A DNA stretch of 64,000 bases from a virus (Duplodnaviria > Caudoviricetes), in the IMG/VR virus record IMGVR_UViG_3300043959_000228, one strand, 5' to 3'. Shown here piece after piece: positions 360 to 63,182 of this stretch (position 1 is the stretch's first letter; each line of letters opens with the position of its first letter). The notes under the pieces were generated by a model, which saw only the letters and a list, made by a program, of their open reading frames with translations, was not told the DNA's origin and did not search any database. Made by a program: the position numbers and the translations under genes.

Positions 360-737
360 TTATGATCTATGCAGAATCCGATTGATAGCTCTGCGCAACT
401 GATCGGTAACATCCCTTATGACATATCGACATCCTAGCGTCCTAGCTTCTCTTACATATGACATGATTATGAAAGCATTCCAGCCAATGGCGAAGAATAT
501 TAATGTCCAAACAGCGTATATCATACCAAGTATTGATATAACGCCAAGAGACACCCATGTAGATATGACCACACCAACATTATATGCTGTTAATAACAGC
601 ATGATCCAATCATTCAACGTTCTAGGACCACCGAATATCCTCCAATTCCGGAAAGGAAAAACGCCCTTCTTCCAATTATCGGCTGTTAACATGGTGACTA
701 AGGCCGTAAGGATCGTGTTGACTATAAGGTATACCAT
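360..737 (-). CDS. Small multi-pass membrane protein
   Basis: 125 aa, about 3 hydrophobic segments; ATATCT-N7-ATG start. Confidence 0.7.
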   Translation of the reverse strand: MVYLIVNTILTALVTMLTADNWKKGVFPFRNWRIFGGPRTLNDWIMLLLTAYNVGVVISTWVSLGVISILGMIYAVWTLIFFAIGWNAFIIMSYVREARTLGCRYVIRDVTDQLRRAINRILHRS

Positions 738-774
738 ATGAATAAGATATAGGTGCTACACCTTAACATGCCGT

Positions 775-2589
775 CTACAGTCTGTTCCTAATCATCCTTG
801 TACGATACTTCTTGACGTATTGATAACATGACTCCTCATCGTGGAACATAGCTTCTAAGCTGATATCTTTACCAATATCCTTCTCGATACGTAATCTGGC
901 GGCCTTTGAACCGGCTCCACGTAAAGCAGCCTCAAGATCCTTAACTCTATGCTCATTATCCATAAGGCCTTCTCTGGCTTTCAACGCTCGTCTTCTCACA
1001 GCGTCATCAGCTTTCTTAGCGTCAGAGTCAATCATGAACGCTTCATCAGAGAGATCGTGACCCTCCATAATGACATCGTCAATAGATCGACAACGACTTA
1101 AAGCTACATATCCTAATCCACGTTGAAAGCAGTTACTAAGATTAATGACTGCTCCATCTAATGTCTGACCCTGAGATTTATGGACAGTGATTGCCCAGGC
1201 TAATCGTAACGGAAGGTACCGCACGAGAGCATCGGTAATCTCAACTTCCTTCAGTATTGTTGATCCATCATCAGCAATCACCGGTTTCACCTCAGTGTGC
1301 GTCTTAGTCGCGTCGATATAGTGAATCGTCACCTCTCTGAGCTCTTCATCTAATGATGGATCTAAGTTCTCAATATCCATATCATCTGATGATCTACTGT
1401 TCATTCTGACCTTGATAATTGGAATTTTCTGACCAGAACCATCCACAGAGGATCCTAATGATGTGACCACGCCCATCGATCCGTTTACATATCCTGGGAG
1501 AGCGTTATTTGATGTCAACATGATCACAGCGCCCTCCTTCAATTCTACGAATTTCAGATGTCCATTCTTAATGATTTCCTTACAATCATCTGGATCACCA
1601 TGACGTTGCAACGGATATCGATGTAATTCTGATGGTAATTCATCCAATCGATTCTGATTGTACTCATCAACACTTCTATTCACCGTGCGTAATCTCGTAT
1701 ACACTTTATCAGATGCTGGCTGTACATGGAATCTTGGATAGATGATTGGTCTCAACGTGTCAACATCAACGCCATCTCTGATACCATTGAGAAGATCGTT
1801 AAGTCTCATATCCTTAGATCTTCTGATCCTATCAAGATAGCAGAATTTGAAACCAGCTGATGAGAATAGTTTCTTACCATCTGTTCCCCTAGCGTGGAAG
1901 CAATATCCACTGTCGACTGGTTGACCAGAGCTGTCCAGCTGATGCGTATCGACTGGTGGTAACTGGAGGAAATCGCCAACTAAAACGATCTGTAATCCAC
2001 CAAAAGGTTGGTCCTTACCCCTAGCCTTACGACAAGCAGCGTCCAAATTAGACAGGAAATATGATGGCAGCATTGACACCTCATCAATAATCAAAATATC
2101 AGTGGCTTTAATGCGCTGCTTCGCTTTATACCATATCCTTTTCTGTTTCTCCGTCATTGTTGTCTCGTCAAAAGGGTCAACACTGATACCAAGACCTGAC
2201 CATGAGTGAATGGTCTTACCAAAAATCAAAGAGGCGGCGACGCCAGTACTAGCCGTAGCAGCAATTTCGATATTCCTGTATTCATTATTAAGACGAGGCC
2301 TAAATGAACAGATAATATCCTGGTACTTATCGATGACCCATGATTTTCCAGCACCCGCAGATCCGCAAAGAACAACATTATCACCGTGTAACAGCCAGTA
2401 AAGAGCCTCCTCTTGACTGGTGTACACGCTATTTGACAATTCATCATGCTCGTCAAAGACAGGTACGTACTGATGTAATCCAGCAGCATATGCTGCTTGT
2501 TGGATACTGGACGGTGATGACTCTATGGCCATATCATCAGAGAATAAATCAATCACGCTTCCTATAACCTCCATATTCAACCATCGCAT
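775..2589 (-). CDS. PIF1/RecD-like SF1B DNA helicase
   Basis: GSAGAGKS, ASTGVAA, DEVSM, GDFLQLPPV, AWAITVHKSQGQTLD, YVALSR motifs; start uncertain. Confidence 0.92.
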   Translation of the reverse strand: MRWLNMEVIGSVIDLFSDDMAIESSPSSIQQAAYAAGLHQYVPVFDEHDELSNSVYTSQEEALYWLLHGDNVVLCGSAGAGKSWVIDKYQDIICSFRPRLNNEYRNIEIAATASTGVAASLIFGKTIHSWSGLGISVDPFDETTMTEKQKRIWYKAKQRIKATDILIIDEVSMLPSYFLSNLDAACRKARGKDQPFGGLQIVLVGDFLQLPPVDTHQLDSSGQPVDSGYCFHARGTDGKKLFSSAGFKFCYLDRIRRSKDMRLNDLLNGIRDGVDVDTLRPIIYPRFHVQPASDKVYTRLRTVNRSVDEYNQNRLDELPSELHRYPLQRHGDPDDCKEIIKNGHLKFVELKEGAVIMLTSNNALPGYVNGSMGVVTSLGSSVDGSGQKIPIIKVRMNSRSSDDMDIENLDPSLDEELREVTIHYIDATKTHTEVKPVIADDGSTILKEVEITDALVRYLPLRLAWAITVHKSQGQTLDGAVINLSNCFQRGLGYVALSRCRSIDDVIMEGHDLSDEAFMIDSDAKKADDAVRRRALKAREGLMDNEHRVKDLEAALRGAGSKAARLRIEKDIGKDISLEAMFHDEESCYQYVKKYRTRMIRNRL

Positions 2590-2609
2590 GCATTCAGAAG
2601 CATTACGCC

Positions 2610-2770
2610 TAATAGAATCTATTGTTACTAAAAGTTGTAGTAAATTGTATCACGTTTTTTATGGCGGTACAAAAGTGAACTTTTAGCTGTACCTCCTGCG
2701 GAGGGCCGCAGTCCCGAGTAAGATTCGGGTGATTGCGGCGGGAGCTCGACAATTTGCGAGCTCCTCTTTA
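2610..2770 (-). ncRNA. Putative omega RNA (reRNA) scaffold overlapping the tnpB 3' end
   Basis: Three consecutive hairpins (2663-2696, 2705-2739, 2741-2764) at the position expected for TnpB omega RNA; limits approximate. Confidence 0.55.
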
Positions 2771-4136
2771 CTAGCTGCTTAAATTCTTGTCTGATATGAT
2801 TACGGTAAGATTTGGGTATCCTCACCTGACGCGGCGTCGGATGCCTCTTCTTAAGTTTCAGGATTTTATTCCTAGTCCTGCGTTTGTTCCGAACGGCGAG
2901 ATTCACCGCGGCCAGGGTGTCCCGGTCAATGGTTTTACCATCACTGAAAGTAACGGTTCTCCCTGATTTGACACCCTTATCCAGCGTGACCTGGTGCTGA
3001 GAAGAGGAATTCATCGCTGAGACCCGCTCCACGGTGATACCAGCCCGCTCCGCGGACGCAACGATCCGCTCATGAATCTCGGCGTGATTCCATTTACCGC
3101 CCTGGGATTTCAGCCACCGTAAGTCTTCAATATGGATCGTTGAGCAGTGTTGCTGCTTCGCAACGCAAACCACGGCTCGGCCGACCAAGTTGGCTAATTC
3201 TTGATGCTGATTCGTGATTTTCGATCTTACACGATTATATTCTGTCAAGAGCGTGGCTTCCCGGCCCGACAGTGCCGGGTTCTTTAAAGCTCGTATCCTG
3301 GAGATTTTTTCGTAGAGAGAATCCTTGTTCCTCTGAAGACGGCGAATCTTGTCGGCCAGTCGTTTCAGGTAACGATTCTGTATGTATTCATTACCATACC
3401 GGCCGGACGGGTATAAGGCCACCGCACTGAAAATCTTCACTCTACCAATATCTACGCCCAGAATACCGTTGCCTTCCGTCCGGCCCGGTGTGTATTCGAA
3501 GGCACATGTACCGATGAGTCTTCCGTCTCTTCTGCGACGGAAGAACCGTGGCTTTGCAATTTTGCCTGTCGGCTTCTCACTCAACGTATACGGGAACAAA
3601 ATGTCGTAGTCAAGCCACTTCCCGTCAAGAAGTTGGATTCGACAGGATGTACCCGTGAGCGTGAAATTCTGTGGAGCACTCACCGTGTAATCGAGTTGAA
3701 ATGTAGCCTCGCGAGCCATCTCGGGTTTAAGTTTACCTGAAAGAATATTCTCTACGCGACCCGAGGTCGCGTAGATTCTATGCTTCTTAGCTAAATTATT
3801 AAAAAGCTCAGGCGTAATTTTATCGTCATTATTCTTCAACTCATCAAAAATGATCTGGTTCTCAATCTTCGATTGCACCTCACGCCTGATGTTCTCGAAC
3901 AACATGATCCCGTACCAGGCGCGATTAGAAATAGGCCAGGTCTTCACACGCGCGCCTAGTTTCTTATTCATCTCGCGCCAAACATTACCCCTGTGTTGGG
4001 TGTAATCCACGGAAGCGATGAGCTTCCGTGATTCCTCATCCGAGAGGAAGAAGATGAGTTCCTTCTGGAGGAAATCGTATAGGGGTAGTAATTCGTCAGG
4101 GAATCTGATGTTGAAGGCTAGCCAGTGTTGCTTCAT
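2628..4136 (-). CDS. tnpB: RNA-guided endonuclease TnpB
   Basis: RuvC-I GVDIG, RuvC-II IHIEDL, RuvC-III DRDTLAAVNL; GGAGG RBS before ATG 4136; TGATATAAT upstream; Zn-finger cysteines absent. Confidence 0.9.
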   Translation of the reverse strand: MKQHWLAFNIRFPDELLPLYDFLQKELIFFLSDEESRKLIASVDYTQHRGNVWREMNKKLGARVKTWPISNRAWYGIMLFENIRREVQSKIENQIIFDELKNNDDKITPELFNNLAKKHRIYATSGRVENILSGKLKPEMAREATFQLDYTVSAPQNFTLTGTSCRIQLLDGKWLDYDILFPYTLSEKPTGKIAKPRFFRRRRDGRLIGTCAFEYTPGRTEGNGILGVDIGRVKIFSAVALYPSGRYGNEYIQNRYLKRLADKIRRLQRNKDSLYEKISRIRALKNPALSGREATLLTEYNRVRSKITNQHQELANLVGRAVVCVAKQQHCSTIHIEDLRWLKSQGGKWNHAEIHERIVASAERAGITVERVSAMNSSSQHQVTLDKGVKSGRTVTFSDGKTIDRDTLAAVNLAVRNKRRTRNKILKLKKRHPTPRQVRIPKSYRNHIRQEFKQLVKRSSQIVELPPQSPESYSGLRPSAGGTAKSSLLYRHKKRDTIYYNF

Positions 4137-4289
4137 TCTTCCTCCAAACCTGTATATATATATTATATCAAGAATCACGATGATTGACGAGATTCAATAA
4201 TTGTTAACGATGATATCATGTATGTTACCATAAATATCAATTATAAGAAATTATTGTTATTATACCATTCAATGGCTGTCTTGTAGGTG

Positions 4290-5522
4290 TTACATCAACG
4301 TGATCATGGTTCTATCCGTCATAAACTCAGGGCTGATGGCCGTTGATGTAGACATTTTGAAAGCATTATCATAGGCAGCACTACATACGGTAATAATACC
4401 ATCACGAGGATTCACCGCTGAACGATACACATCCGAGCCAATAAGCCAATGGAGATCATCGGGCAATGATCCCGCAATGATTCTTACTTGGATTTGAGGC
4501 ATCAGTGGTATCAGCACTGGTATTGAACCATCAGACACTAAAACAATTAAGAATCCGCTAGATGCAGCTATAGTCATTAACGTATATAAATTCATCATGA
4601 ATTGTCTCGATGGTCCATCCAGACTAGCAAACGGATCATACGATGGTCGTAGAACAGCAATAGCCTTTTTAACTTGGTCAGCTGAACCGGAATATTCAAT
4701 ATTCAGACCCAATCCCGGTCCAGAGCGGAAGAATGACGGAGCAGCTTCAACGGCTAAACGATTATATCGAAGACGAGAGGCAAAAATAAATAATGGCTCT
4801 CCCTCTACCTGCGACATTAGTAATGCCACTGACAAGGCTACATCTTCTCCGCATTCATTGCTGATGCTCTCAATCGTCAATATGTCCTTATCGTCTGACT
4901 GTTGATCAATCATAGATAAGGCTAGCAGACATACTGATGCACTAGTCGTATTAGGACACGGGGCGTGAAGAGCGTCACTATCAGATCCTGGTTGAATAAA
5001 ATCAATAATTGCCGTCAGTACATCCTGTGATAAGACCATAGCTGATAATCTCTGTGCAGTCGACCAACAATCCTGGTCATAATGTTGATCTGTCCCTTGA
5101 TCGCTATGATTCTCCTCAGCGTTCTTTAGACTAGCCTCCCATCCCTCAAGCACGAGGAGATGGTTAACCTGCTGGTCATGATCATCACTAGGTGTCGCCT
5201 TCGTCATGGATAGTAAAGCGTCATGAGTCATAATGGAAACAGATGATTGTAAATCATGGTCAGACCAATCATGAACACCATCTATCTGATCGCTCCTCGT
5301 CATAATGTCTTCTTGAATATTGAGTTCATGAAGAGCTGATATGACTTTACGAGCCACATCAATACGATCCTCACCAGCTATGATCATATTCTTCTTCGAC
5401 GATGGAGACATATCAATCGTCCAGTTCGTATTATTCTGATCGAATCGTAAGCCATGTTTGAAACCATTGTTCTTACGAGGCTTGTATTCTCGCTCTCTGC
5501 GCTTCTTTCCAAAACCAAACAT
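4290..5522 (-). CDS. Degenerate FtsK-like protein without Walker A
   Basis: NMIIAGED where PHxLIAGxTGxGKS is expected, LLVLEG, IAASSGFLIVLVS, QVRIIAG; TATAAT-N7-ATG supports start 5522. Confidence 0.45.
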   Translation of the reverse strand: MFGFGKKRREREYKPRKNNGFKHGLRFDQNNTNWTIDMSPSSKKNMIIAGEDRIDVARKVISALHELNIQEDIMTRSDQIDGVHDWSDHDLQSSVSIMTHDALLSMTKATPSDDHDQQVNHLLVLEGWEASLKNAEENHSDQGTDQHYDQDCWSTAQRLSAMVLSQDVLTAIIDFIQPGSDSDALHAPCPNTTSASVCLLALSMIDQQSDDKDILTIESISNECGEDVALSVALLMSQVEGEPLFIFASRLRYNRLAVEAAPSFFRSGPGLGLNIEYSGSADQVKKAIAVLRPSYDPFASLDGPSRQFMMNLYTLMTIAASSGFLIVLVSDGSIPVLIPLMPQIQVRIIAGSLPDDLHWLIGSDVYRSAVNPRDGIITVCSAAYDNAFKMSTSTAISPEFMTDRTMITLM

Positions 5523-5608
5523 ACAATATATTATATCATTCGATCTTAGGTCTTGATATCTTATTGTCACTACAGTAGAAGCACACCTGTACGAGAGGAG
5601 GATAGTTC

Positions 5609-6163
5609 ATGAGTGATAAGAATACAACACGTAAGGATGATCAGGTAGAGGATAAGAATTCTCAAGACGAATCTAGGCCTGTATTATCAGAAGGATTGAA
5701 CGACGATCATGATACCAATGCTACCGATCAACCATCGTCTACGAAGAAGAAGCATGTTGACATTCCTAGTCATCAAGGAGGAAAGTTGCCCTCATTCGAT
5801 GCTCTGAGAAAAGAGCATGATATGATTATTGTTATTAGGATTATCATGTTAATTGCAGTAGCTGTCATTCTCATGATTCCAATCCCCATTGCCTTTGTGG
5901 GTATGAAATTCGTCATCTTCGCATTCTTAGCTTACGCATCGATCTATAATGAGATTGAATTACGTAAAGAATCAGCTATGCGAGGTGATAAATTCTCGAA
6001 ACGCGCTCATACCGCATCGTATGCTGCTTTCATCATTGTCCTCATCCTATTCATCACGCTGTGTCTTATGGTAGGATCAAAGGTAAATATGATGGTTGAT
6101 GTTACGAATCAAGCCGTATCAACCTTACAGCAACTAGGATACGGAACCGTTATCATTAAATAA
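5609..6163 (+). CDS. Membrane protein
   Basis: Hydrophilic N-terminus and about 3 TM helices; GAGGAGG RBS. Confidence 0.75.
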   Translation: MSDKNTTRKDDQVEDKNSQDESRPVLSEGLNDDHDTNATDQPSSTKKKHVDIPSHQGGKLPSFDALRKEHDMIIVIRIIMLIAVAVILMIPIPIAFVGMKFVIFAFLAYASIYNEIELRKESAMRGDKFSKRAHTASYAAFIIVLILFITLCLMVGSKVNMMVDVTNQAVSTLQQLGYGTVIIK

Positions 6164-6195: not shown

Positions 6196-7656
6196 CTACT
6201 TGACCAGCCTGTTCTCATATAATCGATATCCGCTGCCAGTACCAACTGGCTGCAGATTAAGATTTTGAGCGCAGGCTGTATCTAAATTCGATCCAATAGG
6301 ATACAAATACCATCGAACATCATGTTGCAATGACGCGATATATCGACTCGATGTTGATCCACCATCAAGTAAGGCATCGGCATAATCCATCCAATCGCGA
6401 TGACCATTATGCGTGATGGTGTTAGATGATAATTCTGGACGAGCATCAATAGCTGTCTTCAATCCCATCCAGATGATCATGTTCCCATAATCCTCGGTTG
6501 AAGCCACCGGTCCTGGTTGATTCATCACGATATTGGCAAGACGATGGTTAATAACTGGCTGTTCTGTATAGGACGATTGTTGCATGCCAAGCGTTAATAT
6601 GATCATCATAACGCTAACTGATAAAGCAATCGTTATGTTCAATGAACGATGATCGTGGGGAAGTCGATGGCCATATCGTTGTTCAAATAGGACGGATGCA
6701 AGAAGCATAGGAATAACGATAAGCAAATAATTACGTATTGACCAGCAGGTTCCAATTATCACGAGTATCGAGAATAATAGCGTCGACCACCATAACGATG
6801 ATGATCTATAAGAGATGATTAGTGCTAGCATCATGATCGCTATGATGCCCATCAGCAATACAATGTCCATACTAGCCAAACTGGATATAGGCCGCATTTC
6901 TCGTATCACGTTTCTATATGCAGCCACGCCATATGATTGGAAGACGAAAATGAATCCACGCCATCCATATGGATTGATGATTAACGATATAATTTGGATG
7001 CAGCCGAGTAGACATATACCTTTAGCCGACCATATTGACGCTTGACGATGTACGATAACATCAATGATCATGTATCCAATAGGTATGGCAACGGTTAAAA
7101 TAGCCATAGCCATATGGAGATTACCGGCTAGTACGGTAACGGAAAGGAGCATAATAGCATAGTGATTATGATGACCTTCACGCCAGCTGACCACGATTAG
7201 TATCGAGAGCATGGCCGTGATGATGCTCCATATTGATGGTCGCATGGATGTGATCATCATGAGTATCACATATGATGCGCTAATGCCTATGATTGTAGGA
7301 ATACTGATTTGATGGTTAACGATGATTACTATCCTATACATGATTAGAATTAGTATGGATAATTGTAATCCGTGAATGCAAGCCAATCCGAATTGTCCAG
7401 CTAAATGATACGCTCCGTATGATATGACGGCTGATAGCCATTGTTCAATAATAACTGAACCACCATGGATAGTCCATGGATTCGTGGATGGGAATCCATG
7501 AGTGAGTATCCATCGACCATTCTCCAGAATGAACCATTGATCAGTTGCATAGGCTCCATTGCGTAAAGCTGACCATGTAATACTCATCATCGTTACGATG
7601 AGAGCGATCATTATTGGCTTCATGATTGCTCGATGATGCATGCTCAATATTCTCAT
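6196..7656 (-). CDS. Polytopic membrane protein, probable GT-C fold glycosyltransferase
   Basis: More than 10 TM helices, DQWFILENGRWIL loop after TM1, extracellular C-terminal domain; ATATCT-N7-ATG start. Confidence 0.55.
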   Translation of the reverse strand: MRILSMHHRAIMKPIMIALIVTMMSITWSALRNGAYATDQWFILENGRWILTHGFPSTNPWTIHGGSVIIEQWLSAVISYGAYHLAGQFGLACIHGLQLSILILIMYRIVIIVNHQISIPTIIGISASYVILMMITSMRPSIWSIITAMLSILIVVSWREGHHNHYAIMLLSVTVLAGNLHMAMAILTVAIPIGYMIIDVIVHRQASIWSAKGICLLGCIQIISLIINPYGWRGFIFVFQSYGVAAYRNVIREMRPISSLASMDIVLLMGIIAIMMLALIISYRSSSLWWSTLLFSILVIIGTCWSIRNYLLIVIPMLLASVLFEQRYGHRLPHDHRSLNITIALSVSVMMIILTLGMQQSSYTEQPVINHRLANIVMNQPGPVASTEDYGNMIIWMGLKTAIDARPELSSNTITHNGHRDWMDYADALLDGGSTSSRYIASLQHDVRWYLYPIGSNLDTACAQNLNLQPVGTGSGYRLYENRLVK

Positions 7657-7725
7657 ATGCTGTAGATATGGCTGAGAGTATATCTTATTTATGAAGATTA
7701 TAGGCTCTACTGATATAGGGGTATT

Positions 7726-8934
7726 ATGGCTAGAAAAACTCCAAAGAGAGGCGCCCGTGCATTCGGGAAGTCCTCGTCGTTCAAAGACACAAAAATGATT
7801 TGGGTTCTCATCGTCCTAGTGGCGTTGGTCATCGGATCTGGTGTGTTCTATATTCTGAATTCTATCATGAAGCAGGATACGTATTACGTCTTAAACGTGA
7901 ATGTACCTTCAAGAACTCAGATTACAACTGATTATCTGACACCAGTGACCACCAGTCATGGATCAGCTCCTCAAAATGCGTTAGGGTTAAGTGAGGTACA
8001 GAGTGGAACTCTGTATTCAAAATATCCACTGAATGCTGGCGACGTCATAGCCGCATCAAACTCTGGTGCGCTAGACTCAATTAATGAGGGCGTACCTGAT
8101 AATTGGGTCATCACGTCGTTCAATCCTGGAAGCTCAGATCCTATAGTACAGAACTTGCAGCGTGGAGATTACTTCGATCTCATGGTTACGAACATGAAGA
8201 AAGAGGATCAAACCACGACCGATGATCAGAATAATGTGACGAAGAACATTAAGGTTGGACAATGGCTCTTCAGGAATCTTATGATTCTTGATAATCCGAA
8301 TGCCACGGTGACATCGAAGACATCTGATTCAGCTAATTCAGCGACTACATCAACTCAAAACAGCACGACGATGTTCATGCTGGGTATGAGCCCACAGAAT
8401 GCTAGCATTCTTGCAATGGCCGCTAATCAATACGACATGAAGATCGTCATTAGCCCACGTCAGAATTCATACGCCAATCCTAAGACTCTTGACGCCTTAT
8501 ATCAGAGCTTCGATTTCAACGACGTCATTGGTAAGAATCCTACTGGTATCATAGCCAGCAATTGTGTGAGCTCCAAGACTGGACAAGAGGAACAAAAGGA
8601 TTGTACTGATAATACCTTCTCCGCTCAGCAGAGAGATAAATTCGGTGTGCCATACAGCTATAACGCCTCTGATGGTGATACACTCGACGAGAACGGTAAC
8701 CCACAGCCATTGACCGCTCATGAAATTGAATGGTGTGAACAACTGTTCGACGGAGCAGACGGTTACTACTCCAACTCTAAGTGGACGGATGAGAAGGAAT
8801 ACTGCGCTAAGCATTCCACGAAGGATCATAACTTCAAATCTCAACTAGCCGATGAGAACAAAGCTAAGAAGGAGGCCGCTAATGACTCAGCTGCAAACAG
8901 TCTTGGTGACACGTCCTCAAAGACTTCTCAGTGA
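7726..8934 (+). CDS. cpaB: Flp/Tad pilus assembly protein, CpaB/RcpC-like (SAF domain)
   Basis: N-terminal TM, SAF-like segment (VPSRTQIT...YPLNAGDVI), LQRGDYFDL motif; adjacent to a CpaE-like gene. Confidence 0.7.
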   Translation: MARKTPKRGARAFGKSSSFKDTKMIWVLIVLVALVIGSGVFYILNSIMKQDTYYVLNVNVPSRTQITTDYLTPVTTSHGSAPQNALGLSEVQSGTLYSKYPLNAGDVIAASNSGALDSINEGVPDNWVITSFNPGSSDPIVQNLQRGDYFDLMVTNMKKEDQTTTDDQNNVTKNIKVGQWLFRNLMILDNPNATVTSKTSDSANSATTSTQNSTTMFMLGMSPQNASILAMAANQYDMKIVISPRQNSYANPKTLDALYQSFDFNDVIGKNPTGIIASNCVSSKTGQEEQKDCTDNTFSAQQRDKFGVPYSYNASDGDTLDENGNPQPLTAHEIEWCEQLFDGADGYYSNSKWTDEKEYCAKHSTKDHNFKSQLADENKAKKEAANDSAANSLGDTSSKTSQ

Positions 8935-9008: not shown

Positions 9009-9108
9009 TATTAGTTAATCATGCCTAAAGATCATCATGACCCGTAAACGGCGTCTTGATATCTAATTATCAGCAACAAGGCATCAACTTCACGAAGAGA
9101 GGCACAGA

Positions 9109-14661: not shown

Positions 14662-14876
14662 TGTCATCCTTTGATTTAGACGTGTATGATCTGCATAGCT
14701 CTTAATGCAAACTATGATTACATAATAACACAATATTAGATATGTACAATTTTTGTCAATATGACTGGCGTGTCGAAAATCGTATCATCGTTCTAACGTT
14801 GACTGATATGCTATTCATCTTCTGTCATGGTACAATGATCCATATAATTAATCATTGATGTAGGAGGTCATGATTC

Positions 14877-18983: not shown

Positions 18984-19040
18984 ACACGATACACCGATAT
19001 CTTACTCATATCGTAGGAAACTTATCATTATGCTAAGGAG

Positions 19041-21454: not shown

Positions 21455-21506
21455 ATGGCGCATTATACCTACGGTAGAGTGACCTGTAATGGCATATCTA
21501 TATCAT

Positions 21507-25565: not shown

Positions 25566-25823
25566 ACTCATTGTGACACCACGAACAATATAATCCTATC
25601 CATATAAAATCTTCATCTCAGCCATTATTCGTCATAAATGATCGTTTTTCTCGTCAGAAGACCGTTATGAGATAACAATGATTATTGTTGACAATCTGCA
25701 AAACGTTGCTATAGCAACGTTCGTTTATATGACCCTGATATCTTTATTGCATGGGAACGTGCTTTTTGCGCGTTTCCACGGACAAAATAGAAACGCGCAA
25801 AAATCCATATGGAGGTTCCTACA

Positions 25824-26084
25824 ATGAAGGAATATTTTTCTGACAAGGTGAAGTCTGAGGACGGAGCTGAGACGATCGAGATCATCATCGGTATCGTGGT
25901 CTTCGTGGTCTTCGGTTTGACTGTGTTCGGAATGATCACCAAGGCCGGTGGCAACAAGGCTGCCAGCATTTCCAACTGTTTCGCTAAGTCAGGAAACATT
26001 TTGAGTCAGACATCTGACAACGCTAGCACGAAGACTACGTGCAACGATGACAGTGACACTGCCTCATACTCTTACAACAAGTGA
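25824..26084 (+). CDS. flp: Flp-type (type IV/Tad) pilin
   Basis: Short leader, EDG|AETIE (Gly -1, Glu +5), hydrophobic helix, two Cys; GGAGG RBS; own terminator. Confidence 0.75.
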   Translation: MKEYFSDKVKSEDGAETIEIIIGIVVFVVFGLTVFGMITKAGGNKAASISNCFAKSGNILSQTSDNASTKTTCNDDSDTASYSYNK

Positions 26085-26204: not shown

Positions 26205-26210
26205 ATATCT
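26205..26210 (+). promoter_or_regulatory. ATATCT promoter-like box (representative, tadC)
   Basis: 7 nt before the ATG; same spacing at 745-750(-), 7664-7669(-), 21494-21499, 29454-29459, 45303-45308(-), 48696-48701, 60941-60946, 62218-62223. Confidence 0.75.
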
Positions 26211-27132: not shown

Positions 27133-27214
27133 CACATTTTATCATCTATTGATATCCTAATCATGAACAGGTCATGAGAACCTATTAGCAGCAATCATAA
27201 AGGAGAGCCTCTAA

Positions 27215-29446: not shown

Positions 29447-29466
29447 TATAGACATATCTACATCAT

Positions 29467-33144: not shown

Positions 33145-33210
33145 CGAGATCATAGAAAACCGCCTCTAACTATATCTTTCTCATAACTAATATTTTTCTG
33201 AGGAGCACGT

Positions 33211-39678: not shown

Positions 39679-39684
39679 TATAAT
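39679..39684 (+). promoter_or_regulatory. Housekeeping-type -10 box TATAAT (representative, dnaG)
   Basis: TGG-TATAAT-N7-ATG; equivalents at 5530-5535(-), 21462-21467(-), 50548-50553, 58577-58582; also upstream of dnaE (14831), the exonuclease (35475) and telA (36474). Confidence 0.75.
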
Positions 39685-39691
39685 ATCTATT

Positions 39692-45295: not shown

Positions 45296-45419
45296 AACAT
45301 TAAGATATGTCTACAAGCCATTCTTAGAGCATCGTCATCACGAAGGAATAAAACCCTGGATAATAGTGTTATGCATAATGCTACCACATACTGGTAAAGG
45401 ATATTCAAGGAGGCCTATT

Positions 45420-45971: not shown

Positions 45972-45974
45972 TAT

Positions 45975-48682: not shown

Positions 48683-48708
48683 GCTTGATCGTAGCATATC
48701 TTCATTGC

Positions 48709-50528: not shown

Positions 50529-50560
50529 GGCGTTAGAGGCTGATTGGTACAATGCTTTCT

Positions 50561-53245: not shown

Positions 53246-53312
53246 AATACCATCTGCCTATATCTTTGTTATACTTGATGTGACAATCGGACCCTAAAGG
53301 GGGAATATTTAT

Positions 53313-54377: not shown

Positions 54378-54495
54378 TCTGACACCATTGGTATTAGCTT
54401 TCACTTTGTAGTGTGATTGCATTGTTTTGACGTTACACCCTGATATCTTTAGTAATGCTACTATTAGATTTATAGATACCATCGGAGGTTGACGT

Positions 54496-55686
54496 ATGGT
54501 GAATCCATTTGATGATTCTGATGAGGTGAAGAAGGACGCTGAAGATGCGTCATCATCTAATCATGAGAACACCGTTGAGGACAAACCGTTACCGCATGAG
54601 CAGGTCGCGGATTCTTCTGATACCACGGCGTTCTTATCTGAGGACGATGATGATGACGATGCTGCTGTTAATCCTGAGATTGCTCATCTCGTCACGACGA
54701 ATACTGATACAGATGGACCATCGGCTTCATCTACTCATCTCGACGATCTTGACGATGATGATCAGGAGGATACGTATCGTCCTAAGATCAGTAAGCCTGT
54801 CATCGCGGCTATTGTGCTTGTCATTCTGATTATGTTCGGTGTTGGTATATGGCTAACTCAGGGATCGAAGATTCAGAAGATCTTTTCACCGAGCGCTGAT
54901 AACAATTCAAGTATCACTAAGTCTGATGGATCATCACAAACGAAGGCCGGTGTTGGTTCATCGTCGTTCAAAGGACTAAATGTACCTGAGTATTATCAGA
55001 AATCGTATTCATCGTTAAGCGATGATGAAAAATCTGATGCCGATAAGGCCGCTATGGCTAGTCGTCCTGTTGGATCATACGGTGCCCTAGCGTCAACAGC
55101 AGGTAATCCTAACATTACTGATAACCCAGATAAGTATCTGAATGATGATGGGACTATTAATCCTAATTATTCATACTTGACTGATGCTAACGTCATACCA
55201 GTGATTCAGAATGATTTAGAGAGATTAGTCAACCCGGTATATGGTGATTGGACATCATTGCAGAATCTTGGATGGGTGTCATCAGACGGTAAATCAACGA
55301 ATCCTGATGCATGGGAGCATCTGAGGGACATGTTCTCACCATCTATCCAATCAACGATGGTTGATGTGCCTTCGGCCAGGAAAGTCATGTCTATCTACGC
55401 CGATTGGGATCAAAATGCCTTCAACGGCGCATATAATGACAAGGTGTACAATAACGCCGCCGTCGGCGTACCAAGTAATCTAGACTGTGATTATCAGATA
55501 GCTGGTTCGACTGATGATCATATTGATTGTACAGCCGACGTAAAGTATAGTGCTTTGCTTACTGGTGATGATGGCTCCTCAAAGACTGTCACGACCGATA
55601 AGAAGATCACGTTACATTACATAGTGAATTACGATCAAAGACGGGCCAGTAATCGTCGAATATTGCTCACGTCGGTCGAGCAATAA
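54496..55686 (+). CDS. Single-TM protein with acidic cytoplasmic N-terminus and extracellular domain
   Basis: GGAGG RBS; TM near residues 102-120. Confidence 0.75.
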   Translation: MVNPFDDSDEVKKDAEDASSSNHENTVEDKPLPHEQVADSSDTTAFLSEDDDDDDAAVNPEIAHLVTTNTDTDGPSASSTHLDDLDDDDQEDTYRPKISKPVIAAIVLVILIMFGVGIWLTQGSKIQKIFSPSADNNSSITKSDGSSQTKAGVGSSSFKGLNVPEYYQKSYSSLSDDEKSDADKAAMASRPVGSYGALASTAGNPNITDNPDKYLNDDGTINPNYSYLTDANVIPVIQNDLERLVNPVYGDWTSLQNLGWVSSDGKSTNPDAWEHLRDMFSPSIQSTMVDVPSARKVMSIYADWDQNAFNGAYNDKVYNNAAVGVPSNLDCDYQIAGSTDDHIDCTADVKYSALLTGDDGSSKTVTTDKKITLHYIVNYDQRRASNRRILLTSVEQ

Positions 55687-55700: not shown

Positions 55701-58454
55701 ATGAAAGGAAATATGATACGCAGGAATAAGAAACGCATCTTGTACTGCCTCCTAGCGGCGTTCTTCGTGCTAACGGGATCATTCATCTTCGTTTATCACG
55801 CTAACGCTGGACAAGGTGGTGGATCTGGTGATGGAAGCTGTGCTAACGGATGTCATTCGGGTGTACCAGTAGCCAAGATACAGGTAGGCAATTGGGGTTC
55901 ATGGCGTGAAGTCAACTTCGGCGGCGCTCGTGTGGCCTCATGGAGTGGTGACCGGCTAGACGCCTTGATGGATTCTACATTCAATAGAGCTGTCGCTGAT
56001 TGTAAGGCGAAGGCTCAGGCCAGGGGTAAGACGTGTAATAACCCGCGTCTTGTTACCATTGGATACATCGTCAATGGTGGGAACACTTGGGTCACTAGCC
56101 ACTCGACCGTCAAGTTGAATGGTACCGATCCAGGATGCCAGTCCATTAATGTGAACAACCATAACATTACCACCTGTACACCTGACCTCTCAGGTATCTC
56201 AGGAACGATTCGATCTGAGTATAACAACGTTAAGAACAATCAGGTCGTCGCTATGGTCGTCGTCGGAGAGTCTCAATTCCCACAGAAGGGATGGCGAGAG
56301 AATTGGACGAACATACCTGAATCAGATGTGAAATCTGTTAGCACGATTAATTCTGAGGATCTAACGGCCTGCCCAGTGTACTATAGCATACAAGCCAATG
56401 GTTACGATGGTTATGTCAGGAATATGTCCGCTCAGTCAAAGCTCGTCCTCACGCCGTATGGCCAGTTATGGAACGCTATCAATCAAGGTAAGAACACTTG
56501 GACTGACCCCGCCAACGGCAATGTGCTGTCCTGGTTCCAAGTTGAGAAACAACCACAGGGTGATTATAAGACGAATCCTACAGCTGCGGTCAATCGAGCT
56601 GTAGCCGACATAAAACTTGCTCATGACGTTGCTTGCGCTGAGACCTATAAGATGAAGATCGATTATAATCTTGACACTGACGGAGGTATACCAGGTCAGC
56701 AACTTAATAAGCAGTTTGCCCGTGGTGGACAGTATAAGCTTGTGAAGCAGACCAAGAACGCGGTCATTACCGTGAAGAACTTGAATCTTGACTATTATCG
56801 TCGTGATGTCAACTGGGGACAGTGGAACGGTTGGAGCGAGTGCTACCAGGGCGAATCAGGATGTGGCCATATTGGTGAGTCTCGACCAGCTGATCCTTCA
56901 GGTCTAGTCACTGATCTCTATGGAACTGGTCAACGTGGCCGATACTCAGTCGGTGATTGGGTGAAGGGTGACTCGAATGAGATTCAGAATGCTGTCAACA
57001 AGGGTGGTAATGTCAATGTTGCCGGCCGTCGACTCAGCGCAATCTTCGCATCTGATAATTCCATGATTGGTCATAATACTAATAATGGTGTATCTTGGAA
57101 TACTGGTGGAAAAGACAAGTGGATCTTCGGATCAAGTACTGGTATTATTGATGGTACAAAGTTCCATGGTGTAGCTAATGAGTTGCAATCATATGTGGCT
57201 GTTGCTATGCAGGACTTCATTAACATTAATTGTAATCAGGACGACTTCGATACCATCGTCAATTATGTCCGTGGCAGGAAAGACGCTAACGGTAAATCTA
57301 TACTTGATGAATCGTCTGTGAAGAGCACCAAGTATAATGGTTCACTATCCACAGTCGTCATGACCGGATTCCCAGCAGTGCAGAAGATTAATCAACGAGC
57401 ATTAGACATTGTTGCTTCCGCTAATGATGGATCCTATCCAGGTTGGAGTGGAAATAAGGGTGATACCAATGGATGGTCAAGTTCTGACTCTGAAAAGGCC
57501 GGTGACGCCGATCCTATCTATACAAAGGAATGCCCATTTGATTGCTCTGATTCAACATCAGCTAGTACATCAACGTCAACTAACGTCGGTGACAAGTCAA
57601 CGTCAAGCGGATCTGTAAGCTCTGCTGACAAGGCTACCGGTTCATTCGGTATCCTATCATCAAAGCTCAATGCGTCAACGTCAACATTGCTCAGTGGTCT
57701 ACAGGGCAATGATAAGATCAACCAGCCAGTAGCAAACACCGCTGACCCAGTGTTCTTCCGTGATAATGAGTGGAATTACATGAATCTCGATCAGTGGGCA
57801 CCAGTCTCAGCTGCATCAGTGAATTATAATAAGTCCACTACGCCAGTAACGACAACATTCGTTGTTAATACCGATGGATCTCCTTGGTATATTGGAGACA
57901 ATAAGACTCCAGTAACGAAGGTTCAGGCTCTTGATCCTAAGACGAACACTTGGGTTGATATTCTCAATGGTACGCAAGAAGGATCGAGCTCTCAATGGTC
58001 ATCAAGTGAGAACTCAAAGTCTCAGACTGTTACACAGAATTTCGTAAATTCTGATATGAGAACAGCAACCACTCAGCTGGCCACGAATGTCACTAAGATC
58101 AGAATCAAGTCTCCATGGGCATCTGAAAAGAACAGTCCGTTAAAGTTTAACGTCAAGTGGGAGTACACTGCACAGAACTCTGCTCCAGTAGTGTCTACTT
58201 GGTCAACGCAGGGCGACGGATCTGTCAGTGGTAATAGCACAACGAAGGACATGGGAACGTCAACATCAAAGGTTGATGGTAAATGCGACAGTCAATACCA
58301 TCTTCCAGGAGTGTCTTATAACGATCACTCTTCATTCATTCAGCCAGAAACTGGACAAAGTGTGAAGAACAATCTTGATAAGAGTTACCAGGGTGAGGGT
58401 CAGACAATGTCCGGTTGGTTCACTGTGACATTCGTCAGGGCGACTAGTGAGTAA
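55701..58454 (+). CDS. Large secreted Cys/Gly/Ser/Thr-rich protein (putative adhesin)
   Basis: Signal peptide ending HANA; multiple Cys pairs; no sortase motif; AAGGAG RBS. Confidence 0.75.
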   Translation: MKGNMIRRNKKRILYCLLAAFFVLTGSFIFVYHANAGQGGGSGDGSCANGCHSGVPVAKIQVGNWGSWREVNFGGARVASWSGDRLDALMDSTFNRAVADCKAKAQARGKTCNNPRLVTIGYIVNGGNTWVTSHSTVKLNGTDPGCQSINVNNHNITTCTPDLSGISGTIRSEYNNVKNNQVVAMVVVGESQFPQKGWRENWTNIPESDVKSVSTINSEDLTACPVYYSIQANGYDGYVRNMSAQSKLVLTPYGQLWNAINQGKNTWTDPANGNVLSWFQVEKQPQGDYKTNPTAAVNRAVADIKLAHDVACAETYKMKIDYNLDTDGGIPGQQLNKQFARGGQYKLVKQTKNAVITVKNLNLDYYRRDVNWGQWNGWSECYQGESGCGHIGESRPADPSGLVTDLYGTGQRGRYSVGDWVKGDSNEIQNAVNKGGNVNVAGRRLSAIFASDNSMIGHNTNNGVSWNTGGKDKWIFGSSTGIIDGTKFHGVANELQSYVAVAMQDFININCNQDDFDTIVNYVRGRKDANGKSILDESSVKSTKYNGSLSTVVMTGFPAVQKINQRALDIVASANDGSYPGWSGNKGDTNGWSSSDSEKAGDADPIYTKECPFDCSDSTSASTSTSTNVGDKSTSSGSVSSADKATGSFGILSSKLNASTSTLLSGLQGNDKINQPVANTADPVFFRDNEWNYMNLDQWAPVSAASVNYNKSTTPVTTTFVVNTDGSPWYIGDNKTPVTKVQALDPKTNTWVDILNGTQEGSSSQWSSSENSKSQTVTQNFVNSDMRTATTQLATNVTKIRIKSPWASEKNSPLKFNVKWEYTAQNSAPVVSTWSTQGDGSVSGNSTTKDMGTSTSKVDGKCDSQYHLPGVSYNDHSSFIQPETGQSVKNNLDKSYQGEGQTMSGWFTVTFVRATSE

Positions 58455-58526: not shown

Positions 58527-58589
58527 TGATTATATACCGTATTCAATAATAAGACAATATTCTCGTTATGACGTGGTATTATATATTGT

Positions 58590-59093: not shown

Positions 59094-59437
59094 TGGTTAG
59101 CCCGTTACTTGATCCACTTGCAGATGACCCTAAGGATCATCTTATCATGCATCCTAAAGCCGTCCGATTAATTCTGTATCGTCGTCCTACATCTATCAGT
59201 ATGGATGAGGAAATGTATCGTCAGGGAAATTTCAAGGACACACCTTTTAACATGACGTTAGAATCGTCTGTCAATAAACAGGATAACACTATCGAGGAAT
59301 GGTCCTGGATTCTATCTGATCAACAAGGAGGGGACATTGATATGAACCGTCTTACGACGTTCATGGTTCATGTTTTTGATACCATGAGTTCATATTCCCC
59401 TCAAATAGAATTATTAGATCATATACCTCATCATTAA
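59090..59437 (+). CDS. Hypothetical protein
   Basis: Overlaps the upstream stop codon; 115 aa. Confidence 0.65.
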   Translation: MMVSPLLDPLADDPKDHLIMHPKAVRLILYRRPTSISMDEEMYRQGNFKDTPFNMTLESSVNKQDNTIEEWSWILSDQQGGDIDMNRLTTFMVHVFDTMSSYSPQIELLDHIPHH

Positions 59438-59535
59438 GAAGAAGGATGATGAGGATCATGTATATGATATTTGAACATCATAAGTAAGACGACCGGCACA
59501 TAGGATCATACACGGAAATATGGAGGTTTTGACAA

Positions 59536-60936
59536 TTGGGTACGGTCTATAGAAAGCAGAAAGCATTATATACCAATGAGGAGTTCAAGCAACTTGATTT
59601 AAGATTCAGAGTAGGAGCTATTCTCAGTGATGGTCAATGGTATACATCAGATAAGATTCGTCAATGGTCTAAGGAACGTAATCTTGATGAGATTAATCCT
59701 ATTCTCAATGAGATGATGCATCAGCATCAGATTATCAAGAGTAATAATGGCGCGTCATATCGAATGTCTCTACGTCAAATGCAGCAATGGCGGCATGATC
59801 AACATATGAGCATGGACGCTCAGCCAATACCAAAACTCCTTTATCCGAGAGTATTTGGACAAGGTGATCACGCTATGAGTGAAGTAGAGCTCTTCGAATC
59901 AGCTCCATTACACCAAGTAGCTATCTTAACATTCATGCTTAAGAATCCTGATGACATTGACAAGCTGAAAAAGGATTTAGGATATCTCGGAAGATTTAGG
60001 AAATCCCCTACATCTGGTAAATATCAATTATACGCCTTATCAAATAAGGTCACGAAGGATGCCCTCCTCAAATGGGAGGACTCTCATGGCGGGGATATCT
60101 TCGTTCCTGGAAAATTCAATTCTAATAACTCAAGTAGACGAAGAGAACTCATTGAACTCGATAGGCATGTCGTCAATGAGCTCATTACCTTTTATATTCA
60201 ATTCTCTAAATATCTCGTACCATCGATTAAAAAGACTTTTAACGTATACTTAAATGGTAGTATTGGTGCATCAGCATCACAACGAGAAACCACCGACTCA
60301 ATATCCGAGGGTGATAGCATCATCATGCAATGGTTACTCAGTCTTATCAAGACATACGATGAAGGCAGATGCGTACCATTCAGTTACTCTATTGTCATGT
60401 TATTCCCACGTAAGGCCTACGATTACTCCTCTAAGATCATCGGTGATGACTTGAATAGGTTTCAATTAGAGAAGAACAGAGCTATCAAACGTCTTAATGA
60501 ACAGAGTAAAGCGCAGGGTTCGTTGAACTCTATGAAGCACATCGAGAATAGCGTTATCTGTAATGAAATCAATAAGAATGGTAGTATTGATCTTTCTATC
60601 CATGAATATGAGGATCTTGATATGTCCTTGAAGTCATGGCAAAAGTCATATTCACAGGAATCATTAGATTGGACGGAGACAGGAGAGGAACGTGGGTTTG
60701 TCAGTAAGAATGATGAATCCTTCCTCGAAGGTATCGCCAGTAGATCTGATATTCATCATGCTATCATATTAGCTGCTGAGGACACACACGATTGGTCATC
60801 AGAAGTCATCATGTTCAATGCTCTGACCGATTCGAGTATCGCGTCAGCTATGATGAAAGGGAAGATGGATCTCATATCTGACTCATTCAGAGATGCATTA
60901 GCCACATCATTAGCCGAGGTTCGCAGGCTTGGCTGA
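59536..60936 (+). CDS. Divergent sigma70-like factor with N-terminal extension, region 4 not recognisable
   Basis: NELITFY (region 2.1-like), WLLSLIKTYDEGRCVPFSY (cf. GL..AV.KFD..RG.PFSTY, 2.2-2.3), region-3-like helix, SLD; GGAGG RBS with TTG start. Confidence 0.55.
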   Translation: MGTVYRKQKALYTNEEFKQLDLRFRVGAILSDGQWYTSDKIRQWSKERNLDEINPILNEMMHQHQIIKSNNGASYRMSLRQMQQWRHDQHMSMDAQPIPKLLYPRVFGQGDHAMSEVELFESAPLHQVAILTFMLKNPDDIDKLKKDLGYLGRFRKSPTSGKYQLYALSNKVTKDALLKWEDSHGGDIFVPGKFNSNNSSRRRELIELDRHVVNELITFYIQFSKYLVPSIKKTFNVYLNGSIGASASQRETTDSISEGDSIIMQWLLSLIKTYDEGRCVPFSYSIVMLFPRKAYDYSSKIIGDDLNRFQLEKNRAIKRLNEQSKAQGSLNSMKHIENSVICNEINKNGSIDLSIHEYEDLDMSLKSWQKSYSQESLDWTETGEERGFVSKNDESFLEGIASRSDIHHAIILAAEDTHDWSSEVIMFNALTDSSIASAMMKGKMDLISDSFRDALATSLAEVRRLG

Positions 60937-60953
60937 GATGATATCTCAGTATT

Positions 60954-62198: not shown

Positions 62199-62230
62199 TC
62201 TTCTAATCGTCACCCTGATATCTTCATTGT

Positions 62231-62851
62231 ATGTCAGATGAAAAAGTATCCAGATTAGCTTCCTCTAATGTCCAGGTAAAGACCGGATATGTAATAGGCT
62301 CGTTAATCAAACGTATTATCAAGGCCGTACTGATTATTATGGCTTGTTTGTTTATCGTGTATTCAGTCGTGCTTGTACCAACGGCTGTTCGAGTATTATA
62401 CACGGATAATTTCGGATTAGTCCTGACAAAAGACCCGACCATCAAAATGGGTAAGATACCATCTGGTAAGACAGAATTAGTCATTATTGGATCTGGAATA
62501 AATGCGACTGAAACTGCCAAATCTAAAATCACCGCCGCCTTTACGCCACATCAGTCTACATCTATTGTGAAAATAGCCGGTGGCCCTACTGGTCATCTAA
62601 AGATTGACGACGCGACAGGGCTCGCCAGTATCGATGGTAAGACCATCAATAATTCTAGAAAACCGCTTAATTACGCATCAGTCGTGAAGAATAAGTACCT
62701 TCTTGATAATCAGTATTACGTGCAGTGTCTGAAAGGATCATGTCAACAAGGACAATTCTATGTTATGGATCAAACGGATATTCTTGGTGAAGTAAAGACC
62801 AATGATACTGATCAACCATTGATCGATGTCTTAAAGGAGCAACGCTCATGA
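62231..62851 (+). CDS. Single-TM protein, possibly a degenerate S26-like fold
   Basis: N-terminal TM, IVKIAGGP, NQYYV, DILGEV resemble the S26 layout without a clear catalytic Ser; ATATCT-N7-ATG. Confidence 0.55.
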   Translation: MSDEKVSRLASSNVQVKTGYVIGSLIKRIIKAVLIIMACLFIVYSVVLVPTAVRVLYTDNFGLVLTKDPTIKMGKIPSGKTELVIIGSGINATETAKSKITAAFTPHQSTSIVKIAGGPTGHLKIDDATGLASIDGKTINNSRKPLNYASVVKNKYLLDNQYYVQCLKGSCQQGQFYVMDQTDILGEVKTNDTDQPLIDVLKEQRS

Positions 62852-63093
62852 GCATGAATTTTAATCCATTATACGATAATAAACCTTGGTCTGAACCCAA
62901 GGATAGAGAAACGCCAGAAATTGCTGATAAGCATGACGAGACGATCCTCGATAAGAAACTCCGCCGTAAATCTAAAGATAATCGAGGATCAATAGTGATT
63001 CTTCACAGAATCTTAGGTGGCGTTATTATCATTGCGGCCATATCAGCTATAGGATTATTGCTCTATGGTGGATTCGTATACGCTTTCCTATAA
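62848..63093 (+). CDS. Small protein with C-terminal TM
   Basis: ATGA overlap, AAGGAG RBS. Confidence 0.7.
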   Translation: MSMNFNPLYDNKPWSEPKDRETPEIADKHDETILDKKLRRKSKDNRGSIVILHRILGGVIIIAAISAIGLLLYGGFVYAFL

Positions 63094-63182
63094 ATGGTCT
63101 TCAGATTTTATCGGTGATATCTTCATCTTGTTATATATGTATATGGTATTAAACAGCTTCGCGGCTAAGGGGTAAACAAAAT

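Follow-up and report, generated by a model that had tools for sequence, protein, structure and literature searches.

In the 64,000-nucleotide stretch of DNA analysed here (IMG/VR virus record IMGVR_UViG_3300043959_000228; hereafter the window), which has a GC content of 44% and is part of a 491,046-bp contig, the hexamer ATATCT recurs upstream of genes on both strands, often exactly seven nucleotides (nt) before the start codon (ATATCT-N7-ATG). This observation is real and lies far beyond chance, as confirmed by the counts below. On the strength of its position, shape and conservation ATATCT is very probably a -10-type promoter element with the consensus (T)(G)ATATCT(T), and our favoured explanation, which we hold to be probable, is that it represents a -35-less extended -10 promoter class, dominant in a family of giant mobile elements and read with the participation of a sigma factor which these elements themselves encode. 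The class may plausibly be private to the element and, judging from the element DNA, rather likely is.

The original prediction had listed nine ATATCT-N7-ATG sites, before the starts at 737 (minus strand), 7656 (minus), 21507, 26218, 29467, 45295 (minus), 48709, 60954 and 62231. All nine are present, and every other coordinate that it gave, including those of the intergenic copies and of an ATATCC variant at 27152, is likewise right. At none of these nine leaderless genes is there a Shine-Dalgarno (SD) sequence. The fixed spacing exceeds chance, in that 10 of the 51 ATATCT copies found on both strands stand at N7 before an ATG, as against 1.4 expected (binomial p=1e-6), and no other spacing between 0 and 15 nt is taken by more than four copies. 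The tenth such copy, at 25738, precedes an ATG at 25751 that opens a reading frame of only 30 amino acids (aa) and that is a GTG in a relative, and is therefore better taken for a promoter that serves the Flp-type pilin gene at 25809 through a leader. When all hexamers were ranked, blind, by their enrichment in the sense-strand zones from -70 to +25 of 51 open reading frames (ORFs), ATATCT came first, with 19 of its 51 copies in 3.6% of the positions (p=5.5e-15), while GGAGGT, other SD words and TATAAT ranked below it. Within these zones 19 copies lie in the sense and 4 in the antisense orientation. The logo of 20 window sites reads B-ATATCT-T(70%)-W-W-T-N-W-Y-A(80%); the 7-nt spacer is nearly free of G, an A occupies position +7 in 16 of the sites and TG precedes the motif in nine. 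The window as a whole holds fewer copies than dinucleotide shuffles would lead one to expect (51 against 84), but selective avoidance of ATATCT inside genes was rejected as the cause, because a Markov-4 model predicts the count (32 observed against 35 outside the promoter zones).

The replicon-wide test of positional enrichment that had been proposed for the motif was run on a complete relative (G001; 419,707 bp with terminal repeats, 49.5% GC), which was found by a scan of viral contigs and which encodes an orthologue, 62% identical, of a sigma-like protein of the window to which we return below. The outcome is overwhelming: over 433 ORFs ATATCT ranks first of the 4096 hexamers, with 73 of its 219 copies in upstream zones that make up 4.6% of the positions (p=1e-41), and with 73 copies in the sense as against 15 in the antisense orientation. 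The octamer TGATATCT is still more concentrated, since 40 of its 51 copies in G001 lie in upstream zones. At the N7 position before candidate starts the hexamers that stand out are ATATCT (18 copies, p=3e-26) and TACCAT (11 copies, p=1e-12). The logo of 90 G001 sites, t-G-ATATCT-T(88%)-a, has a purine at +7 in 76% and TG before the motif in about 50%, and the distance from motif to start codon is bimodal, either 0-9 nt or 30-70 nt. Altogether 107 of the 433 genes (about 25%) carry the motif between -100 and +30, and these genes are spread across the whole replicon. No -35 partner emerges from the logos of the 20 window and 90 G001 sites, which bears out the earlier remark that a shared -35 element is missing.

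Further evidence comes from syntenic contigs of related elements, which were reached via homologues of two window proteins. In L001 and L015 (67-68% protein identity, 53% GC) and L016 (55% identity, 54.5% GC), taken together, ATATCT is again the top upstream hexamer, with 15 of 30 copies in upstream zones (p=1.4e-12). It is kept at no fewer than 13 orthologous upstream positions as the GC content rises from 44% to 53-54%, and the DNA flanking the hexamer is not conserved. The exact N7 spacing is retained in relatives before the orthologues of an SNF2 helicase, a T2SSF protein and a VirB4-type ATPase, and ATATCT also precedes the orthologues of the pilin, prepilin peptidase and NlpC/P60 genes and of the genes at 54496, 60954, 62231 (at N7 in L001) and 63183. 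The VirB4 orthologues are instructive in this context: all begin at the same codon (MSNDKK.., MANKD.., MAKND..), and the gene is leaderless in the window and in L015 but not in L016, where its ATG is preceded by a GGAG and stands 43 nt downstream of ATATCT. Since the same start can thus be either leaderless or SD-led, the motif marks the start of the transcript rather than acting as a translation signal. Of the six coding-strand copies of L016, five have a G or C directly behind the hexamer and the remaining one an A, so that T-7 is found in none, and no copy has TG in front; the absence of both identifies ATATCT itself as the invariant unit. Over larger distances, in relatives down to 25% identity, TGATAT is kept throughout and the downstream half varies (CT, TCT, TT).

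The relation of ATATCT to known -10 elements depends on the register in which it is read. Shifted one base to the right, TG-A-TATCT-T fits TGnTAnnnT in most copies; in this register, TATCTN, neither T-12 nor A-11 ever varies, and 70% of the window sites and 88% of those in G001 have T-7. The geometry is then canonical (T-12, A-11 and a 6-nt discriminator), though one base off that of a second promoter class of the window, which is built on TATAAT and also stands at N7; in the register of that class ATATCT fails at five of six positions. The one-base offset between the classes suggests that they are served by different holoenzymes, and the strict conservation of A-13, C-9 and T-8 likewise points to a different holoenzyme. 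These are positions that a housekeeping sigma reads weakly. The notion of a non-canonical -10 element survives in part: starts about 7 nt downstream are indicated by nine leaderless and about ten SD-led genes, but the element is less exotic than had been supposed, since most copies fit TGnTAnnnT.

The second class had been noticed as TA(T/C)AAT-N7-ATG at three genes of DNA metabolism, all of which are as described: TATAAT at 21462..21467 (minus strand) before the leaderless ATG 21454 of nucS, TATAAT at 39679..39684 (plus) before ATG 39692 of dnaG, and TACAAT at 50548..50553 (plus) before ATG 50561 of recG. Two more N7 sites can be added, namely TATAAT at 5530..5535 (minus) before ATG 5522 of the gene 4290-5522, and TATTAT at 58577..58582 (plus) before ATG 58590 of a DUF3566 gene, the first of a run that ends in the sigma-like gene; all five genes are leaderless. 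In the window these boxes are usually preceded by GG or TGG, and in GC-richer relatives the class takes the form GGTACCAT or GGTACTAT. It thus drifts with GC content (TATAAT to TACCAT), as a TANNNT element would, whereas ATATCT does not. Promoter words of the two kinds overlap or abut in places: the dnaG box overlaps an ATATCT at 39683 in the sequence TATAATATCT (39679-39688), and ATATCTTATAAT (31473-31484) lies inside the gene 30693-31547, 53 nt before the gene at 31537; both may be dual-class or internal promoters. G001 has two further classes, TGTTATAAT(GGAATCGT) and G(T/A)TAGAT(T), both without a -35 element, and all the promoter classes can be written as G(-14)-n-TA-nnn-T. TAGAT is also present in L004 and L005, two distant relatives, and the window offers one good copy at best, in front of the replicase gene (46379). 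That TAGAT in L004 and L005 might be a drifted ATATCT was considered and rejected, as the complete relative has both.

The two main classes differ in the genes they head. In the window DNA-metabolism genes account for 8 of 11 TATAAT-class units as against 1 of 20 ATATCT units (Fisher p=1.7e-4), in agreement with the claim that ATATCT forms a class apart from the promoters of such genes. In G001 TATAAT or TACCAT heads, among others, the genes for RecA, DnaG, GyrB, a topoisomerase, a RuvB-like protein, MgsA, the delta' subunit of pol III, a DEAD helicase, TelA, Clp, PBP and IF3, and ATATCT those for VirB4, TadA (T2SSE), TcpE, FtsK, NlpC/P60, Rce1, LemA, Bax1-I, YdjM and DUF805 proteins, but also those for the ribonucleotide reductase small chain, CRISPR Cse1, thioredoxin, a lyase, nucleases, SNF2 and a 5'-3' exonuclease. 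The proposed regulon of transfer, pilus and membrane genes consequently holds in that all recognisable transfer, Tad-pilus and envelope genes belong to it, and falls short in that cargo belongs to it as well (ribonucleotide reductase, Cse1, nucleases and SNF2 in G001, SNF2 also in the window). The functional split between the classes is real, and ATATCT is a general promoter for everything else, not a mark of transfer genes only.

A candidate reader of ATATCT is encoded within the window itself, at 59536..60936 on the plus strand. The 466-aa product comprises a MarR-like winged helix (residues 1-95), an alpha/beta domain and sigma regions 2-3 (about residues 211-382). On its own it has no sequence match in Pfam or PDB, and a Foldseek search with the full structure model (predicted local distance difference test, pLDDT, 75) gave no match with E<=0.001. 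An exhaustive structural search put Staphylococcus aureus SigB first (Z 8.9 over 151 residues, root mean square deviation 4.0) and also listed HrdB (Z 7.8) and sigma-32 (Z 7.3), the matches spanning regions 2-3; such Z values alone are not decisive for a helical domain. The 95 N-terminal residues match MarR-type winged helices in the structural search, and a protein language model places residues 200-466 next to Sigma70_r2 clusters from phages. A profile search extended the family to 112 clusters from metagenomes. When 71 members were aligned by hhalign with seven true, unrelated sigmas (L008-L014), residues 211-382 fell on regions 2.1-3 with a probability of 88% (E=2.9e-6); the 11 close homologues by themselves gave an insignificant result (E=0.06). 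Within the family Pfam recognises Sigma70_r3 in 14 of the 71 members (best E=3e-8) and Sigma70_r2 in 11, whereas for region 4 there is no more than one Sigma70_r4_2 match (E=0.021) in a single member. The profile and fold alignments end near residue 380, and the 70 C-terminal residues are helical. By transitive homology, the protein is regarded as a divergent sigma-70 relative with regions 2-3 and no detectable region 4.

G001 encodes in addition a second sigma of canonical type, with the signature FSTYAIWWVRHYIQR and matches to Sigma70_r2 (E=1.5e-11) and phrog_351 (E=2e-35). Both sigma genes of G001 lie behind ATATCT, as does the sigma-like gene of L001, and that of the window lies downstream of the TATTAT-headed DUF3566 run (58577) and of an ATATTT variant. 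In a distant relative (25% identity, 37% GC) the sigma genes lie two genes apart and the local motif near them is TGATATT. In the distant relative L046 (8499-11287) nothing but a 101-aa ORF stands between the canonical sigma gene and the sigma-like one, within a TrbL/SLT transfer cluster, an adjacency which hints that the two sigmas act together. An attempt to pair sigma and motif by their co-variation across relatives gave no clear match to either sigma. Among the possible readers we would place the sigma-like protein foremost, although at somewhat less than an even chance; the canonical element sigma is a possible reader, a host factor a rather unlikely one, and a joint action of both sigmas on the motif is improbable.

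The favoured explanation can be set out as follows. ATATCT, in full (T)(G)ATATCT(T), would be the core of a -35-independent promoter of extended -10 type, and RNA polymerase would begin transcription at the purine found 7 nt behind the hexamer. If this purine is the A of an ATG, the messenger would be leaderless and need no SD sequence; elsewhere it would carry a leader of 25-70 nt with a GGAGG. Such promoters would constitute the dominant class of giant (0.35-0.68 Mb) conjugative plasmid-like elements, heading about a quarter of the genes, among them much of the accessory cargo and every transfer, Tad-pilus and envelope gene that can be recognised, and the replication, recombination and repair genes would be left to the second class, TGnTA(Y)NAT, which resembles an ordinary housekeeping-sigma promoter. 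We infer that ATATCT is read by RNA polymerase carrying an element sigma, either the product of 59536-60936 or the canonical-type sigma outside the window. The sigma-like gene could be reached from the promoter at 58577, which is of housekeeping type, and its counterparts in relatives have an ATATCT promoter of their own; together, a housekeeping-type and an own ATATCT promoter would make a cascade with positive feedback, as in the early and late programmes of phages and as with SigN of plasmid pBS32. A bolder version, which we put forward as tentative and somewhat doubtful, makes the undescribed sigma family the dedicated reader of TGATATCT, which with the second element sigma and the host sigma would run a three-tier, -35-less and largely leaderless programme.

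Several considerations weigh against the favoured explanation. The start sites are predicted from sequence rather than mapped, and the assignment of the sigma-like protein is one of transitive homology, with a poor model (pLDDT 54) for the domain taken alone. Most copies, given their fit to TGnTAnnnT one base to the right, are usable in principle by a host housekeeping sigma. Since all four motif classes of G001 are without a -35 element, the missing region 4 does not single out ATATCT as the partner of the sigma-like protein; and two sigma candidates face at least three non-identical motif classes, a set that cannot be paired by sequence alone. Finally, the privacy of the class to the element is a presumption drawn from the DNA of the elements.

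The most serious rival, to which we accord a minor but real share of likelihood, takes the copies for ordinary extended -10 promoters (TGnTATCTT) served by a housekeeping or alternative sigma of the host, and hence not private to the element. It draws on the retention of T-12, A-11, usually T-7 and a canonical 6-nt discriminator in TG-A-TATCT-T, on the form G(-14)-n-TA-nnn-T that all G001 classes share without a -35 element, and on DnaE, NucS, DUF3566 and DUF6020, which suggest a host of actinobacterial type. In hosts of this type TANNNT promoters and leaderless mRNAs are found. Yet the strictest bases, A-13, C-9 and T-8, are ones that a housekeeping sigma recognises poorly; L016 keeps ATATCT without T-7 and TG; the hexamer stays fixed over 44-54% GC where the TATAAT-type class drifts; and the two classes, if both were read as TANNNT, would stand 1 nt apart in register. 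The location of 40 of 51 TGATATCT octamers at promoters is likewise unlike a degenerate housekeeping consensus, and the elements carry two sigma genes themselves.

Other readings fare worse. ATATCT could be the site of a repressor or activator overlapping the promoters, bound for example by the winged helix of 59536-60936, instead of being the -10 itself. The MarR-like fold at the N-terminus of that protein would suit such an operator, as would the GATATC-type palindromes that partly overlap the motif in some copies; this is nevertheless very unlikely, the motif being a strictly oriented, non-palindromic 6-8-mer (73 sense and 15 antisense copies) at a fixed N7 before leaderless ATGs, and ATATCTA/G/C copies offering no other TANNNT at -10. 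Operators, moreover, do not as a rule hold a distance from the start site that is exact to one base over so many genes. A translation initiation signal in place of the SD sequence, highly improbable in our estimate, would account for a motif at the SD position, 7 nt before the ATG, in genes that have no SD; the same motif, however, stands 25-70 nt upstream of genes with a good GGAGG, orthologues switch between the leaderless and the SD-led arrangement, and ATATCT is not complementary to the conserved 3' end of 16S rRNA. Chance, or a by-product of AT-rich intergenic DNA, might be entertained for so short a hexamer, the more so as its overall shortage is explained by lower-order composition. This explanation is refuted by the enrichment counts and keeps only a vanishing probability: the p values in the window, the three relatives and G001 are 5.5e-15, 1.4e-12 and 1e-41, and each time ATATCT is first of 4096 hexamers, outranking ATATAT and TATAAT, and it is specific in both strand and spacing.

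The individual window sites illustrate both arrangements. Leaderless genes on the minus strand are headed at N7 by ATATCT at 745..750 (ATG 737; gene 360-737, 125 aa), at 7664..7669 (ATG 7656; gene 6196-7656) and at 45303..45308 (ATG 45295), the last of these heading an operon that runs from 45295 to 41812 and encodes a 476-aa protein, a signal peptidase and a coupling-protein fragment. On the plus strand the corresponding sites are 21494..21499 before ATG 21507 of the SNF2 helicase, which shares an operon with DUF6020 and GT2 genes (kept in L015); 26205..26210 before ATG 26218 of a T2SSF/TadC-like gene (N7 kept in L015 and L016); 29454..29459 before ATG 29467 of the VirB4-type AAA_10 ATPase (N7 in L015, leader and SD in L016); 48696..48701 before ATG 48709 of an Rce1-like protease; 60941..60946 before ATG 60954 (ATATCT kept in L001); and 62218..62223 before ATG 62231 (N7 kept in L001), where more distant relatives have TATTCT or ATATTT.

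Leadered genes with an SD, all on the plus strand, follow ATATCT at 5556..5561 (gene 5609-6163), 9059..9064 (ParA/CpaE-like ATPase gene 9109-10578), 18997..19002 (gene 19041-20618), 33172..33177 (prepilin peptidase gene 33211-34041; kept in L015 and L016), 53260..53265 (NlpC/P60 gene 53313-54377; kept in L001), 54443..54448 (gene 54496-55686, and 55701-58454; two copies in L001) and 63117..63122 (gene 63183-63908; kept in L001), and the ATATCC variant at 27152..27157 (gene 27215-28696), whose L015 orthologue has ATATCT. The copy at 14738..14743 (minus) precedes a 956-aa gene, 11863-14733, of uncertain start codon. The copy at 7680..7685 (plus), with a leader of about 40 nt before the gene 7726-8934, forms with that at 7664..7669 a back-to-back pair 10 nt apart, so that between 7657 and 7725 two divergent genes are served, one leaderless and one leadered. 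At 25738..25743 (plus; kept in L015) the motif precedes the Flp-type pilin gene 25809-26084, and here, unlike elsewhere, the leader (window 25744-25808; L015 6442-6506) is itself conserved (tcattgc[a/g]tggaacgtgc...) and could be a regulatory 5' untranslated region. Of the gene names that had been suggested in the original prediction, cpaB, adhesin, virB4-N and tadE are without Pfam support in the window.

The promoter-to-ATG rule also disagrees with start codons taken from the longest ORF or from the public gene call for L006, the cases being 6196-7656 (minus), 21489/21507, 48685/48709 and 50552/50561. For the gene starting at ATG 7656 the L006 call gives 475 aa, whereas the reading from the ATG that ATATCT predicts is 11 codons longer (486 aa). 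Leaderless starts in these elements are systematically mis-called.

Other observations concern the translation and defence genes of G001. Its IF3 gene lies behind a housekeeping-type promoter. IF3 discriminates against leaderless mRNAs, and an IF3 of the element could tune the translation of the many leaderless genes. The Cse1 gene of G001 is behind an ATATCT promoter, and a hairpin resembling a type I-E CRISPR repeat, TTCCCCGCG(TT)GCGGGGTTCATCC, stands directly 5' of several G001 promoters; this hairpin is absent from the window.

As to the setting of these promoters, the window interleaves replication and repair genes recognised by Pfam (dnaE, nucS, dnaG, recA, recG, a 5'-3' exonuclease and a PIF1 helicase) with transfer, Tad-pilus and envelope genes of Gram-positive type (TcpE, the AAA_10 VirB4-type ATPase, T2SSF, prepilin peptidase, NlpC/P60, signal peptidase and Rce1-like proteases), and about half of its ORFs have no Pfam match. 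The best matches of DnaE, at about 34% identity, are in actinobacterial plasmids and actinophages, which together with NucS, DUF3566 and DUF6020 suggests a host of actinobacterial type. No close relatives at the DNA level were found among known plasmids or phages, no relatives in two scans (RecA and the sigma-like family) of 185,579 species genomes, and no Rfam families or tRNAs in the window. A TnpB/Cas12f-like ORF with a weak TNB-domain match (2628-4178, minus strand) lies behind two TATAAT boxes and has no adjoining transposase. Two members of the element family, for example of 44% and 53% GC, share one sample in two instances (L001 and L006 in SRR16378897; L004 and L015 in JGI 3300046047), so that related giant elements coexist in one community.

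The significance of the motif lies in one strict code of 6-8 bases heading about a quarter of the genes across an element family. It supplies a simple rule for delimiting transcription units and for finding true leaderless starts that gene callers miss, and the analysis assigns a class of function to an unannotated protein family of 112 clusters. With two candidate sigmas and one motif the circuit is testable, and it offers an entry point to the timing with which transfer, pili and cargo are switched on in giant elements. Should the three-tier programme be true, it would make giant conjugative plasmids transcriptionally semi-autonomous, in the manner of jumbo phages.

Among known systems the closest in organisation is SigN (ZpdN) of the Bacillus subtilis plasmid pBS32, a plasmid-encoded sigma with a plasmid-confined regulon, which activates its own gene after a first synthesis from housekeeping-type promoters (PMC6751061). 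The likeness consists in a large element with sigma genes of its own and possible feedback, the readers proposed here being candidates. SigN promoters, however, have both a -35 and a -10 element, whereas those with ATATCT are -35-less and often leaderless, and the SigN regulon is small and concerned with DNA damage and cell death, whereas ATATCT heads about a quarter of an element of 0.4-0.5 Mb.

With regard to promoter form, the late promoters of phage T4 (TATAAATA) have as their reader gp55, a minimal sigma that lacks region 4. They too constitute a strict, -10-only class; their reader is a very divergent sigma devoid of the -35-reading domain, as the candidate for ATATCT may be, and they drive late structural genes. 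The motif differs from ATATCT, and gp55 is small (185 aa) and depends on gp33 and on the sliding clamp, whereas the candidate here has 466 aa with a winged helix and regions 2-3 and is not known to be linked to a clamp. Extended -10 promoters have the form TGnTATAAT, and the Thermus phage P23-45 has -35-less middle and late promoters. ATATCT shares with extended -10 promoters the lack of a -35, TG in about half of the copies, T-12, A-11, usually T-7 and the canonical discriminator, and differs from them in what does not vary, here ATATCT (-13 to -8) with its C-9 and T-8, TG and T-7 being dispensable in some relatives. Leaderless genes of Actinobacteria and Deinococcus have TANNNT 6-7 nt before the start codon; the second class (TATAAT, TACAAT and TATTAT at N7) is exactly of this kind, whereas ATATCT is off TANNNT in the register of that class and far more strictly conserved. 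The late promoters of Bacillus phage SPO1 combine a -10 GATATT with a -35 CGTTAGA and are read by gp33/gp34. Their GATAT core resembles GATATCT and the GATATT(T) variants of L004 and L046, but they also need the -35 box, of which the ATATCT promoters show none. To our knowledge, a sigma factor and promoter code of its own has been known for phages and one Bacillus plasmid, and not for half-megabase conjugative plasmids of uncultured bacteria. In kind, then, the system is a known one, a mobile-element promoter code with element-encoded sigmas; what sets it apart is its scale, its strictness, its link to leaderless genes and the sigma-like family that it has exposed.

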